A stretch of DNA of 64,000 nucleotides from an uncultured Planctomycetia bacterium (lineage in GTDB: Bacteria; Omnitrophota; Gorgyraeia; 2-01-FULL-45-10): positions 18,240 to 82,239 of the forward strand of contig CAYGRZ010000002.1 in NCBI GenBank assembly GCA_964352425.1. The letters run 5' to 3'. Position 1 is the stretch's first letter; each line of letters opens with the position of its first letter. A program made the translations under genes and the position numbers. Positions 6,934 through 52,654 of this stretch are shown here, in pieces. The notes under the pieces are model-generated. The model had not been told where the DNA came from and did not search any database. It worked only from the letters and a program-made list of their open reading frames with translations.

Positions 6934-7782
6934 ATGTGCGCCAAAGTAAGCCAGGTAGTATCGCGGCTCGTTCCTGACGGGCCCGTAAAGGAAGCCTGTA
7001 CGAGTTTCTACTATAGCCTCTACTATAACCGCAGGCATTTCAGGGAGAACGGGTTCCGCGTCAACTACAAAAAAGGCCATTTCACGTACGGCTTCGACGA
7101 CGGCGTCTCGTTCTCCTCCTATGAAAACATGGCCGATGAGCTCAAGCGTTCGCTGAAAGGGTATCTCGCGAAGTATGCGCTGAGGAAGGGCGATACGGTG
7201 GTTGATTGCGGTGCGTATATCGGCGAGTTCGCGCTGTGCGCGGCGAGCGCCGTCGGGCCTTCGGGCGCGGTGATAGCGTTCGAGCCGGACCCGGCGATAT
7301 TCGGGAAGCTGAAGGCGAATGTGATGCTGAACGGGTTCGAAAATGTCGTGATGGTCAATAAGGGCGCGTGGAGCGCCGACGGCGTGCTGCAGTTCGTCGG
7401 GGATAACGTGCGGGGCTATTCCTTCATGTTCGCGGATAAGGGTCACGGCGCCATCGATATTCCCGTCGCAAGCCTCGACAACGAACTCGGGCGGCTCGGC
7501 GTGAAGAAGGTGAATTTTATCAAGATAGACGTCGAGGGCGCGGAGCTGGAGCTTATCAGGGGCGCGGAGAAGACCTTAAAGGGAAATGATGTGAAGGCGG
7601 CGATCGCCTCGTATCACGTCGTCGATGGTAAGAAGACCTGCGCCGAGGTGGAGAGGATGTTCAGGTCTCTCGGGTATAACGCTGCGACCGCGCATCCGCA
7701 GCACCTGACGACGTATGCATGGAAGGATTCGGCGAGATGTGGTAGACGTGATGTAACGGAAAATAATCGGGGGGTGTTATGA
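6934..7782 (+). CDS. FkbM family methyltransferase
   Basis: [11 protein letters not shown] motif and overall FkbM-like layout. 282 aa. Confidence 0.65.
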
Positions 7783-38794: not shown

Positions 38795-39190
38795 ATGCCG
38801 CATACCGACGATTCGCATATACTCGAAGAAGACCTCGATTTTGAGATATCCTTCTACGAGGACATACTGAAGACGAAGCCCGACCTTGTCGACGCCCTCA
38901 TCGTCCTCGGCGACGCCTATACGCAGAAGGGCCTCTATGGGCAGGGCCTCGGCGTGGACCTCAGGCTCTCGCGGCTCAGGCCGAAGGACGCGACCGTCCA
39001 TTATAATCTCGCCTGCGACTATTCTCTTCTGAAAAGAACGGACGAGGCCGTCGCAACGCTCGAAAAGGCGGTAAGGCTCGGCTACAGGGCGTTCGACTAC
39101 ATGTCGAAGGATCCCGACCTGGGCCATATCAGGAACGACGTGCGGTATACCGCACTGGTCGCGAAATATAAGAAGAAGAGGGGAGCATAG
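38795..39190 (+). CDS. Tetratricopeptide-repeat-like protein
   Basis: Helical repeats (ALIVLGDAYTQKGLYGQ, HYNLACDYSLLKRTDEAVATLEKAV). Extended -10 promoter TTGCAA...TGaTATAAT upstream. Confidence 0.45.
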   Translation: MPHTDDSHILEEDLDFEISFYEDILKTKPDLVDALIVLGDAYTQKGLYGQGLGVDLRLSRLRPKDATVHYNLACDYSLLKRTDEAVATLEKAVRLGYRAFDYMSKDPDLGHIRNDVRYTALVAKYKKKRGA

Positions 39191-49755: not shown

Positions 49756-50061
49756 ATGGATAAGAAGAATGGTTTCATCAATGATGCGGTGGTCGTAGCG
49801 GTAGGCCTGGCGGCGCTCGTCTTTATTGCCGTGTGGGTCATCAATGCCAACGCCGAATATTATAAGCAGGCGGTGAGCGCGGCGGAGGCGACAAACGAAA
49901 CGCTGATGCAGCAGCGGGACGTTGTGATAAAAAAACTTATGCGGCTGGCGGATGCCAGGCAGGCGGAGCTGGCCGGCGCCAGGAAGAACGTGGAAATCGC
50001 CAGGGCAGAGCTTGACGCGTCAAAGAAAAAAATAGAAAACATCAAAGCGATCGTGCAATAG
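49756..50061 (+). CDS. Hypothetical membrane-anchored coiled-coil protein
   Basis: One TM helix then a helical segment. GGAGG RBS. Terminator downstream. Confidence 0.45.
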   Translation: MDKKNGFINDAVVVAVGLAALVFIAVWVINANAEYYKQAVSAAEATNETLMQQRDVVIKKLMRLADARQAELAGARKNVEIARAELDASKKKIENIKAIVQ

Positions 50062-50082
50062 CCGCGCCCCGCTCATATAAAC

Positions 50083-50127
50083 CTTCGCCGACCGGAGTTT
50101 TGGTCGGCGGAGGTTTTTTATTTTTTG
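50083..50127 (+). terminator. Rho-independent terminator
   Basis: Stem CCTTCGCCGACC/GGTCGGCGGAGG then TTTTTTATTTTTT. Confidence 0.6.
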
Positions 50128-50165: not shown

Positions 50166-50194
50166 TTGGGATTTAGTGTCTTCGGGAGTATAAT
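50166..50194 (+). promoter_or_regulatory. Conserved promoter cassette copy (TTGGGA-17-TATAAT, spacer ending TTCGGGAG); predicted leaderless transcript for the archaemetzincin-like gene
   Basis: GCTTGGGAtttagtgtcTTCGGGAGTATAAT. The ATG at 50202 lies 7-8 nt after the -10. Confidence 0.5.
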
Positions 50195-50201
50195 CTGAAG
50201 T

Positions 50202-50861
50202 ATGAAGATAACGAAGCCGGCATCGATACTTTTATTATTCTCACTGCAGCTGTGTATTCCCGATACGGGCCTGGCGAGGTCGGTCGACGAGCGTGTCTAC
50301 ATTGTCCCGGCGGGGCCGGTTGACCGGAAGATTATCAAGACACTAAAAGAGCGGCTTCCCGGCTGCCTGCCGATGGCCGTCAAAGCAGTGATCGAGCCGC
50401 CCAAAGACCTCCCCCACGCCGCGTACGATGAGGCGCGCAAACAATATAATGCCGAAACGATGCTGGATGTGCTCTCCAAGCGGGTCGTCATAGGTGAGGC
50501 GATGGAGCGGGCGCTTTTTGTCGTCGACGTTGACCTTTATTCGCCCGGCCTGGACTCAGTCTGCGGCCTGGCTGACCCGAAGAAGGGTGTGTGCATCATA
50601 TCGCTGGCACGCCTCAGGAACGAGTTTTACGCCCTGTTGCCCGACAGCAGGCTCTTTATCGACCGGGCGGTGAAAGAAGCGGTCCGCGAGCTGGGCCGCA
50701 CGTACGGTATCGACGGGTGTCCGGATCACCGGTGCGTGATGTTCTCTTCCGGCACTCTTCGGGACAACGATAAGAAGAGGGATACATTCTGTGTCGAGTG
50801 CCGGATAAAATTGCGCAAGCGGTATGGCGGCTCGATCATCGGGCCGGTGCTGCCGAAATAG
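50202..50861 (+). CDS. Archaemetzincin-family homolog with all three zinc-binding His substituted (predicted inactive), C4 zinc-ribbon retained
   Basis: Motif reads AVRELGRTYGIDGCPDHRCVMFSS...FCVECRIKL where archaemetzincins have HExxHxxGxxHCxxxxCxM...CxxC. His1 becomes R, His2 becomes R, His3 becomes D. Confidence 0.6.
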   Translation: MKITKPASILLLFSLQLCIPDTGLARSVDERVYIVPAGPVDRKIIKTLKERLPGCLPMAVKAVIEPPKDLPHAAYDEARKQYNAETMLDVLSKRVVIGEAMERALFVVDVDLYSPGLDSVCGLADPKKGVCIISLARLRNEFYALLPDSRLFIDRAVKEAVRELGRTYGIDGCPDHRCVMFSSGTLRDNDKKRDTFCVECRIKLRKRYGGSIIGPVLPK

Positions 50862-50874
50862 GGATACGTCGTCC

Positions 50875-51948
50875 ATGAAGAAGCGGATACTGTTGTATGT
50901 CCTGTGCGCGCTGCTGGCCTCTCCGGTCGCTGCGAGATGCGATGAGCCGGCGCGCCGCGGCCTCTTTGTCACGGTGCTGCAGGAACCTCAGGTGCTTTCG
51001 AGCCGCGAGGAGATCGGGAAGCTGGTCGATTTCGCGAAAAGGGCCCGTATCAATGTCATCTTCGTGCAGGTCTATTACGCGAACAGGGCGTGGTTTCCTT
51101 CGAAGACCGCGGACCGGAGGCCGTATGAGAGTTGCGTAAAAAAACTGTCAGCCGACCCTCTCCGGCTTCTTATTACACAGGCCCATGGCGCGGGGATAGG
51201 CGTACATGCCTGGATGAATATGTTGAGCCTGGGCGATAATAAGGACGCCCGGCTCCTCAAAAAATACGGGACCGGCATCCTGACGAGGAACCTGAAAAAG
51301 AAGAAGGCGATCGAAGATTATAAGATCGACGGCCAGTATTTTCTCGAGCCCGGCGATACGCGGGTCCGCGAGGAGCTTTTGAACGTGGCCGAGGAGATCG
51401 TCCGCGCCTATCCCGGCCTGGACGGGATCCAGTTCGATTATATCCGTTATCCGGACCAGCATCCGGCGTACGGCTATGCGGATATGAATGTCGAACGTTT
51501 CAAAAAGGCGACCGGCCTTACCGCGATCGATGAGAAAGGCAGGGCCTGGCAGGGCTGGAAACGGGCCCAGGTGACGGGGCTCCTCGAACAGCTTGCCGAA
51601 AGGGTGCGCTCGGTCCGTCCGGGCATCGAGGTATCGGCGACGGGGTGCATGCCGTACTCGCGCGCGTATCTCGAAGCATTCCAGGACTGGCCGTCCTGGC
51701 TCGAGCGCCATCTCGTGGATTTCGTAACGGTGATGGGCTATTCCCCGGATCCCGCGGAACTGAAGCGATGGATCGCGGCCGCAAAAAGCAAGACGGCGGA
51801 CTTCAGGAAAGTGACCATAGGCCTCGGCGCGTATAAACTGGTGCGCTTGCCGGAGGTGTTCGAGCGTGAATTCCGTATCTGCGAGGAAGCCGGCGCCGGA
51901 GGCTACGCTATCTTCCATTACGGCAGCCTGCTTAAGATGAAAAGATGA
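50875..51948 (+). CDS. GHL10 (glycoside hydrolase-like family 10, YngK/YddW-type) protein
   Basis: Signal peptide then a TIM-barrel-like region typical of GHL10 proteins (RGLFVTVLQEP...INVIFVQVYYANRAWFPS). ATG at 50875. Confidence 0.55.
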   Translation: MKKRILLYVLCALLASPVAARCDEPARRGLFVTVLQEPQVLSSREEIGKLVDFAKRARINVIFVQVYYANRAWFPSKTADRRPYESCVKKLSADPLRLLITQAHGAGIGVHAWMNMLSLGDNKDARLLKKYGTGILTRNLKKKKAIEDYKIDGQYFLEPGDTRVREELLNVAEEIVRAYPGLDGIQFDYIRYPDQHPAYGYADMNVERFKKATGLTAIDEKGRAWQGWKRAQVTGLLEQLAERVRSVRPGIEVSATGCMPYSRAYLEAFQDWPSWLERHLVDFVTVMGYSPDPAELKRWIAAAKSKTADFRKVTIGLGAYKLVRLPEVFEREFRICEEAGAGGYAIFHYGSLLKMKR

Positions 51949-51967: not shown

Positions 51968-52654
51968 ATGACAAAGGCCCGCATGAAGAAGATCGAGATC
52001 GAGAAGATAGTCCGTTCGAAGCGCAGGACCGTCGCGCTCGTTATCACGAGGGATGCGACGCTCGTCGTCCGCGCCGGTTTGCATACGCCCACCACATTCA
52101 TCGAAGACCTGGTGCTAAAGAAGAGCGCCTGGATAACGCGGAAGATCGCCGAAGTGGCCGGACGGCCGAAGCCGTTTCCCAGAAAATTTGCGGATGGCGA
52201 GCACTTCCCGTACCTGGGGAATACCTATCCTCTTGCAATTGTCGATGATACGGAAGCCCCGCTTTCGCTGGCGGACGGATTCATCATGTCGAGGCGCTCG
52301 CTCCCGGCGGCCAGGCAAGTCTTTGTCGGCTGGTACCGGGAGAAGGCGTGTGCGAAGATAAAGGAAAGGCTCGACCTGTATGCTTCCCTCTCCGGTATCA
52401 GGTACGGCAGGTGCACTATAACAGGCGCCCAGAGCCGCTGGGGATCGTGCACGGCAAGGAATACGGTTAATTTCAGCTGGCGCCTGATTCTGGCCCCGCT
52501 CCATGTGGTCGATTATGTCGTCGCACATGAGCTCGCGCATATCGAGCGGAAGGACCATTCGCGGCATTTCTGGAACAGGGTTAATGACATTTTCCCCGGA
52601 TACCGCGAAAGCGAGCAATGGCTGAAAGATCACGGCGATTCGCTGGGGCTGTGA
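51968..52654 (+). CDS. YgjP/DUF45-family metal-dependent hydrolase (annotated as M48-family metallopeptidase in some databases)
   Basis: HELAHIERKDHS zinc motif (HExxH) near the C-terminus. Confidence 0.7.
   Translation: MTKARMKKIEIEKIVRSKRRTVALVITRDATLVVRAGLHTPTTFIEDLVLKKSAWITRKIAEVAGRPKPFPRKFADGEHFPYLGNTYPLAIVDDTEAPLSLADGFIMSRRSLPAARQVFVGWYREKACAKIKERLDLYASLSGIRYGRCTITGAQSRWGSCTARNTVNFSWRLILAPLHVVDYVVAHELAHIERKDHSRHFWNRVNDIFPGYRESEQWLKDHGDSLGL

Follow-up and report, generated by a model that had tools for sequence, protein, structure and literature searches.

We analysed a 64,000-nucleotide (nt) stretch of contig CAYGRZ010000002.1 (hereafter the window, at its full length), which carries a gene for an archaemetzincin-like protein in which the three zinc-binding histidines of the family have been replaced. 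This amz-like gene, whose product we call the window protein, lies between a gene for a small protein and a glycosyl-hydrolase-like gene, with a terminator and a promoter in front of it (Table 1). It is the sole substantial plus-strand open reading frame (ORF) at its place, and an in-frame TGA at 50196-50198 makes a start codon further upstream impossible. Other loci and proteins used for comparison are given L and P numbers, respectively.

Table 1. Features of the amz-like locus, in window coordinates
Feature	Coordinates	Strand	Evidence
101-aa protein with N-terminal transmembrane helix and coiled coil, upstream of the amz-like gene	49756..50061	+	ORF
Intrinsic terminator of the upstream gene: 17-bp stem (9 GC pairs), 4-nt loop, T tract	50079..50126	+	Fold of sequence
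Sigma-70-type promoter: TTGGGA (50166-50171), 17-nt spacer, TATAAT (50189-50194)	50166..50194	+	10/12 consensus matches
Coding sequence, archaemetzincin-like pseudo-protease, 219 aa plus stop codon	50202..50861	+	ORF, hidden Markov model (HMM), PDB and fold matches
Predicted Sec signal peptide, residues 1-25: MKITKP, hydrophobic core, GLA/RS	50202..50276	+	Translation, hydrophobicity heuristic, conserved junction
Degenerate zinc-binding motif RELGRTYGIDGC (against HExxHxxGxxHC): R162, E163, R166, G169, D171, G172, C173	50685..50720	+	PDB alignments, codons
Cys4 element and Met-turn, C173-X4-C178-X-M180-X16-C197-XX-C200	50718..50801	+	PDB alignments, relatives
GHL10 / DUF4015 glycosyl-hydrolase-like gene with signal-like N-terminus	50875..51948	+	Pfam PF02638, E=2.4e-32
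YgjP-like metallopeptidase-domain gene	51968..52654	+	Pfam PF01863, E=3.5e-52

Fold and zinc-site residues of the window protein

Sequence, profile and predicted-fold evidence concordantly identified the window protein as a member of the archaemetzincin family, in line with the homology proposed in an earlier note on this DNA. Pfam PF07998 (Peptidase_M54) matched it with E=5.5e-20 and 72.6 bits (cutoff 24.4) and NCBIfam NF033823 (archmetzin) with 148.2 bits (cutoff 145), both above the curated cutoffs, the second by a margin of 3 bits only. By sequence it matched the PDB archaemetzincins 3lmc, 2x7m, 4axq and 3zvs at E=2.6e-23 to 1.7e-15, with 3lmc at E=2.6e-23. An AlphaFold2 model built from a 20-sequence alignment, which is a predicted and not a solved structure, had a mean predicted local distance difference test score of 86.3, with the core above 90. 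When we compared this model with the PDB using Foldseek, the top five matches were all archaemetzincin structures (3lmc, 2x7m, 3zvs and 4axq among them; E=1e-17 to 2e-15) and no other fold came first; the target-normalised template-modelling (TM) scores of the top matches were 0.82-0.92. The ADAM, ADAMTS, fragilysin and MMP metzincins were far weaker matches.

The profile match also has a bearing on naming. As the window protein exceeds the NF033823 cutoff, it would receive the name 'archaemetzincin family Zn-dependent metalloprotease', which is misleading for members lacking the histidines. P0010 and P0015, two members of the clade described below that do bear this NCBI name, are both His-intact.

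Three alignments to PDB archaemetzincins ran without gaps over the zinc-binding motif, placing RELGRTYGIDGCPDHRCVM of the query on HEIGHLFGLGHCDNPGCIM. At the ligand positions, the first His is replaced by Arg162, the second by Arg166 and the third by Gly172, whereas Glu163 and Gly169 align with the catalytic Glu and the conserved Gly of the family and are kept. The window protein (R162-E-L-G-R166-T-Y-G169-I-D-G172) thus departs from the three-His consensus HExxHxxGxxH. The earlier note had stated that all three zinc-ligating histidines were lost, and the ungapped alignments bore this out; it had, however, read the third as Asp, whereas Asp171 actually precedes the ligand position by one residue. 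Only two histidines, H72 and H176, occur anywhere in the protein, both unconserved among relatives, so no alternative alignment restores the triad. Realignment as a means of recovering the histidines was therefore ruled out by the two unconserved residues and the three concordant alignments.

At the codon level, the window reads CGC GAG .. CGC .. GAC GGG TGT over the motif, where the intact ortholog at locus L004 (protein P0003, 70% identical to the window protein, motif HELGHTYGMGHC) reads CAC GAG .. CAC .. GGC CAT TGT. Measured against this nearest intact relative, CAC has become CGC at two places, and GGC-CAT has become GAC-GGG.

By contrast with the ligands, the Cys/Met signature of archaemetzincins (CX4CXMX16-17CXXC) is complete. 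C173, C178, M180, C197 and C200 are all present and, together with Glu163, match what the earlier note had described as kept. In solved archaemetzincins, the Cys4 element is a structural zinc site required for stability, and in extracellular metzincins four similarly placed cysteines form two disulfides (PMC3427221). By analogy, the Cys4 of the window protein may bind zinc or may instead be oxidised to disulfides, a question that arises from its predicted extracytoplasmic location. Loss of the His triad predicts that the protein carries at most one zinc, at Cys4, and is without zinc-dependent proteolysis. The earlier note spoke of a retained zinc ribbon; the cysteines of such a ribbon are there, and a zinc held by them would be putative.

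The N-terminus carries a predicted signal peptide (Table 1) that the earlier note had missed and that would set the window protein apart from classical archaemetzincins, which start at the first beta-strand, equivalent to residue 31 of the window protein. The same N-terminal layout was present in all close relatives, and the junction (AxA followed by [KR]x[VI][DE]E) was conserved clade-wide. We rejected a lipoprotein, since LQLC is not a lipobox and Cys18 is unconserved (Phe in P0001); the predicted signal peptide is accordingly one without a lipobox. The window protein is thus predicted to be exported beyond the cytoplasm.

Recurrent ligand loss in a predicted secreted clade

To place the window protein among its relatives, we used a profile search over 1.84 billion cluster representatives, which returned 7673 family members at E<=0.001. 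The best 150 of these 7673, 19 word-index homologs and the window protein were aligned (170 sequences), and a neighbour-joining tree was built without the motif columns. The His-Glu-His-His residues of the motif were intact in 137 of the 170 proteins and not in the other 33, and the four cysteines were present in 166. A signal-like N-terminus was found in 29 of the 33 degenerate proteins, and three of the remaining four were N-terminally truncated fragments (Fisher p=4e-11). A single clade of 41 representatives held 31 of the 33 degenerate proteins together with 10 intact ones, and outside it 127 of 129 proteins were intact (Fisher p=6e-23). Every clade member with a complete N-terminus carried a signal peptide by the heuristic. 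The clade, which is mostly Omnitrophota and which we call the secreted A[KR]xV[DE]E clade, is defined in this analysis and is not a curated family. Other scans added little: in genome contigs, most of the matches were classical cytosolic archaemetzincins (of Chloroflexota, Nitrospirota and Bathyarchaeia), with just one Omnitrophota locus, and of two metagenome scans the first was empty and the second produced one more locus with the residues RERG.

Fitch parsimony required at least 10 state changes, which we read as independent losses because regain of three histidines and the Glu is implausible; the number is approximate, as support values are lacking for the tree and sampling was biased toward the clade. 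In agreement with independent losses, several different replacement patterns (RERG, REAQ, REHH, HEHR, YECS, HTGG and TEYD) were nested among intact sequences. Within the clade, the most common residue at each of the three ligand positions accounted for 34%, 41% and 29% of members, respectively, and the Glu of the motif was kept in 68%. All four cysteines were 100% conserved, and the family-wide residues R79, Q81, Y82, D111, G122, S134, R137, L138, R155, K158, D190 and K192 were conserved at 85-100%. The clade also has conserved residues of its own (D41, P53, P57, A84 and E102). The window protein sits in this clade with a predicted signal peptide, the mature N-terminus typical of the clade, all of the clade-specific residues, the invariant Cys4 and a substituted zinc triad.

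One explanation for such a pattern is that the whole secreted subfamily never depended on proteolysis and is an envelope binding or structural module, from which the zinc site was lost neutrally here. That this one clade accounts for about 10 independent losses or more, compared with two among the 129 proteins outside it, fits this explanation, as do the clade's own conserved residues and its conserved mature N-terminus, [KR]x[VI][DE]E. Moreover, archaeal archaemetzincins show no activity in vitro even with an intact site (PMC3427221). However, the HExxHxxGxxH site is perfect in 10 of the 41 representatives, and it is also perfect in P0297-P0301, P0303, P0305, P0306 and P0308, which argues for selection on the site in part of the clade. 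We regard a subfamily that was never proteolytic as a serious minority possibility.

The RExxR variant of the window lineage allowed a closer look at how the ligands were replaced. The sequence RELGRTYGIDGC was also present in P0001, P0002 and L088. In a group around L090, the motif was RELGRSWKLPDC or RELARSWKLxDC in seven sequences (75-100% identical to L090), whereas the sister proteins of this group were intact (HELGHSWKIDHC and similar). A further RExxR was found in P0310 (RELGRSWGLDYC), and P0304 has RQLGR. From these sequences, RExxR arose at least three times. The question raised by the earlier note, whether RExxR marks a conserved clade, thus has a divided answer: close relatives (P0001, P0002 and L088) do share the variant, but the window-lineage form is shallow (at least 85% identity) and represents one of many independent losses.

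Arg (CGY) and Tyr (TAY) are the two residues reached from His (CAY) by single transitions, and these two dominate the replacements at the His positions. Arg occupied both positions in 4 of 24 listed variant patterns (a hand count, uncorrected for shared ancestry), against 4.2 expected if the two positions were independent. We therefore rejected RExxR as a specially selected pair; single transitions suffice, and the variant can be explained by its mutational accessibility.

These counts bear on a second alternative, namely that the active site has been rebuilt and the protein continues to hydrolyse, using Glu163 with Arg162 and Arg166, or a metal site with Asp171, His176 or the cysteines, and acting on a peptide or another substrate. 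Glu163 is indeed kept here as in most of the clade, Arg is the commonest replacement at both His positions and recurs as RExxR, and the cleft residues are conserved. Arg, however, is unable to ligate zinc, and neither His176 nor Asp171 is conserved even in close relatives (P0002 reads CSDRRC, with other residues elsewhere). The Glu itself has also been lost in many clade members (HT, NA, EA, YG, RQ, CQ, RA, RV and RI variants), and the frequency of the Arg pair calls for nothing beyond mutational accessibility. A rebuilt hydrolase is improbable on this evidence.

Selection on the gene and its proposed function

To ask whether the gene is maintained or decaying, we compared its His-less copies. 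A full-length His-less ORF was found in five loci (the window, L001, L002, L003 and L088) that encode four distinct proteins and come from different metagenomes. For the window, L001 and L002, the ratio of nonsynonymous to synonymous substitution rates (dN/dS; Nei-Gojobori method) came to 0.20-0.31 for the complete gene and to 0.15-0.25 when only the mature part was counted; the synonymous divergence (dS) was 0.22-0.30. Synonymous differences among the three were found inside the new Arg and Gly codons. Against the intact ortholog, dN/dS was 0.17-0.21, and in the second His-less lineage (RELGRSWKLPDC; L090 versus L091) it was 0.11 at a dS of 0.99. The gene has been under purifying selection since the histidines were lost and is not a pseudogene.

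These results leave little room for a decaying relic, that is, an inactivated protease gene heading for loss without a selected function. In favor of a relic, the loss is recent, as judged from the 70% identity of the nearest intact relative; a CAC to CGC transition is all that each His to Arg change needs; and dN/dS is somewhat higher among the three His-less genes (up to 0.31) than against the intact ortholog. However, even these values lie well below 1, codons of the new motif residues vary synonymously while the residues stay the same, and full-length ORFs persist across loci and metagenomes. The second His-less lineage has lasted to a dS of about 1, the Cys4 and scaffold residues are invariant, and the gene has its own conserved promoter. 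Decay is thus very improbable. An artefact of assembly, sequencing or alignment is a negligible explanation of the His loss, given that RELGRTYGIDGC occurs in the window and, with synonymous differences, in four more loci that were assembled independently, that three PDB alignments are ungapped and that the protein has only two histidines.

We therefore favor, with a probability of about 0.7, an exported protein that is dead as a zinc protease and maintained by selection. As its three His ligands are replaced by Arg, Arg and Gly, the protein would no longer bind the catalytic zinc and hence would not be a zinc protease; it would be a functional pseudo-enzyme and not a decaying gene. Its fold would be held by the invariant Cys4 and the Met-turn, with cleft and scaffold residues kept. 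The separate loss of the zinc site on many occasions suggests that the selected function of the subfamily needs no hydrolysis. A peptide or protein ligand might then be bound, and not cleaved, in the cell envelope; we propose this non-catalytic binding role tentatively and place it somewhat short of even odds. A wider version, in which the secreted archaemetzincin-like proteins of Omnitrophota form a distinct envelope family whose metzincin cleft has turned into a non-catalytic ligand-binding site, is speculative and rather unlikely. As part of that version, the Arg pair would put positive charge in the former place of the zinc, for example for a carboxylate or another anionic group.

Several points weigh against an exported pseudo-protease. 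The export call comes from a hydrophobicity heuristic and the AxA junction and not from a trained predictor. The 170-sequence sample is enriched for the secreted clade because the profile was built from it, and the recurrence was read from a tree without support values. Retention of Glu163, here and in 68% of the clade, could hint at residual chemistry. The inactivity in vitro of solved archaeal archaemetzincins with intact sites makes for a weak 'protease' baseline (PMC3427221). Finally, neither the distant gene contexts nor the distribution of the 101-aa gene revealed a conserved operon partner beyond the close relatives.

Comparison with known systems showed both shared and distinct features. 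Archaemetzincins (MEROPS M54), including AmzA of Methanopyrus kandleri (2x7m) and the proteins of Archaeoglobus fulgidus (3zvs and 4axq) and Methanocorpusculum labreanum (3lmc), have the same fold at 30-34% identity. They share with the window protein the Cys4, the Met-turn, the catalytic Glu, the Gly and the family residues RxQY, DLY, SxxRL, RxxKE and DxK; the window protein differs in having R, R and G for the three histidines, a signal peptide and a bacterial (Omnitrophota) origin. Catalytically inactive ADAM22 was among the weaker Foldseek matches (TM about 0.5, 13% identity). ADAM22 is the LGI1 receptor, in which the metzincin fold no longer has its zinc site but still serves outside the cell as a scaffold that binds a ligand. 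It differs from the window protein in being a multidomain membrane protein of eukaryotes, and disulfides take the place of the window protein's Cys4.

The closest functional precedent, from a different subfamily, is CarG of Myxococcus xanthus, an archaemetzincin-like protein without protease activity that works via protein-protein interaction and whose four cysteines are essential for stability (PMC8156234, PMC3427221). The CarG motif, HQxxHxxExxHC, keeps the His ligands and has Gln for the catalytic Glu, and the protein binds two zinc atoms (PMC8156234). Its lesion is therefore the opposite of that in the window protein, which keeps the Glu and loses the histidines. CarG is also a cytoplasmic partner of CarD, with its gene downstream of carD and translationally coupled to it, whereas the window protein has a signal peptide and der, the 101-aa gene, GHL10 and ygjP as neighbours, with no carD. 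Membership of the CarG family (NF033824, 'non-proteolytic archaemetzincin-like protein') was ruled out, as the window protein scored 72.8 bits where the cutoff is 250; of 37 clade members tested with NF033824, not one reached it (best E=3e-31). Vertebrate AMZ1 offers a natural zinc-ligand substitution, its third His being Asn, Ser or Thr, and its activity is doubted (PMC3427221). Only one ligand is changed in AMZ1, however, and the protein is eukaryotic with extra domains. In the archaemetzincin literature, of which our coverage was incomplete, we came across no account of a bacterial clade that is secreted or of a His triad lost in full, and a search for M54 non-peptidase homologues returned nothing useful.

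The window protein is best regarded as a pseudo-protease of archaemetzincin fold; pseudo-proteases themselves are already known, as are non-proteolytic archaemetzincin relatives (CarG), and the scope is limited to one uncultivated phylum. Within this scope, a secreted subfamily that keeps its scaffold, Cys4 and cleft under purifying selection while its zinc ligands are repeatedly dropped indicates that selection can act on a non-catalytic function of the fold. The gene is a clean example of how a pseudo-enzyme originates, since its locus is orthologous to that of an intact enzyme and each His to Arg change took one single-base transition, and matched intact and dead orthologs, such as P0003 and the window protein, are available. 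Were the cleft indeed a binding site, recurrent loss of the triad would mark a change of function, and the intact and His-less members would form a series for finding archaemetzincin ligands. Annotation pipelines, meanwhile, will mislabel the His-less members as Zn-dependent metalloproteases.

Transcription unit and neighbouring genes

The upstream gene ends in a strong intrinsic terminator (Table 1), so the amz-like gene needs its own promoter. The terminator stem-loop was kept in L001 and L002 and was not present in L004. A promoter pattern scan found one site in the region versus 1.2 in shuffled sequences, which means that the match alone is not beyond chance; we call the promoter because of its position and its conservation. 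Both hexamers, the length of the 17-nt spacer and the 7-nt distance from the end of TATAAT to the ATG were identical in L001, L002 and L003 (two distinct sequences); four positions inside the spacer varied, as did two of those that separate the -10 hexamer from the ATG. L001 diverged upstream of about -50. A TATAAT 7-8 nt before the ATG and a conserved promoter, both reported in the earlier note, are thus present, with the distance being 7 nt. No Shine-Dalgarno-like sequence was found before the ATG in either variant (CTGAAGT and CTAAAAT), and a leaderless amz-like mRNA is plausible from this arrangement.

A -10-like hexamer was located 4-9 nt before the first start codon in 6 of the 56 long ORFs in the window, compared with an expectation of 0.83 when based on genome density and of 2.2 when based on other upstream offsets. 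Leaderless transcripts may therefore be common in this genome, although the counts are suggestive only. The other five such ORFs start at 6934 (+), 11543 (-), 38795 (+), 41526 (-) and 48037 (-), with the hexamers TAAAAT, TATGAT, TATAAT, TATTAT and TATACT, respectively, 5-7 nt before the start; the ORFs at 38795 and 48037 also have a TGTGA extended -10 context. Rfam returned no relevant RNA element in the intergenic region, and a literature search on leaderless mRNAs in Omnitrophota gave nothing useful.

The order der, 101-aa gene, amz was common to the window, L002 and L088, all His-less, and to the intact L004. This shared locus shows that the window gene is the ortholog of an intact enzyme, and the earlier note's reading of it as a paralog is not supported; in addition, a tblastn search of the 64-kb window with the window protein found no second copy. 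In L004, the amz ATG lies 4 nt past the stop codon of the 101-aa gene, with neither a terminator nor a promoter between them, and a ygjP family gene follows amz directly. Judging from this gene order, ygjP is the ancestral downstream neighbour of amz. In the window lineage, the GHL10 gene has been placed between amz and ygjP, starting 13 nt past the amz-like stop codon; it was also downstream of amz in L002, L003 and L088 but not in L004. A single lineage thus combines three changes: an inserted GHL10 gene, a new promoter and a lost active site. In our proposal, the terminator and promoter unit would be new in this lineage along with the His loss, and the new promoter would drive a probably leaderless transcript of the amz-like gene and the newly inserted GHL10 gene, which are probably co-transcribed.

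The 101-aa protein gave nothing above threshold in Pfam. Its gene was conserved directly upstream of amz in L088 (82% identity) and in L004 (66%) and was not found in L089 or L090, which limits it to the close lineage; from its position, it could be a partner of the amz-like protein. An M54 gene near der was also present in the more distant genomes of L089 and L090. L090 has the motif RELGRSWKLPDC, and L089 has intact histidines but Lys in place of the metzincin Gly. The L089 protein, P0298 (L089 7827-8567), keeps its three histidines and reads HELGHSWKIDHC, with Lys for the strictly conserved metzincin Gly; its NEFY...GLKPD loop is also longer, by about 27 inserted residues, and the Trp-Lys signature recurs in several relatives.

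Named homologs of the neighbouring Der GTPase and named archaemetzincin relatives were all from Candidatus Omnitrophota. In distant relatives (L005, L006, L007 and the P0004 contig), we found no common neighbours except a nitroreductase in two. In these two, at L005 5397-5945 (P0014) and L006 5163-5984 (P0015), the gene just upstream of the one for the secreted M54 protein is of the nitroreductase family; both proteins are distant Omnitrophota relatives with intact motifs. Four database entries are unusually long and appear to be read-throughs or fusions with the upstream gene: P0029 (480 aa), P0066 (704 aa), P0090 (368 aa) and P0291 (325 aa; L091 3-980). The long L091 entry begins with a protein with TPR and transmembrane segments, homologous to a 278-aa gene of L090, and continues with a normal signal peptide and M54 domain.

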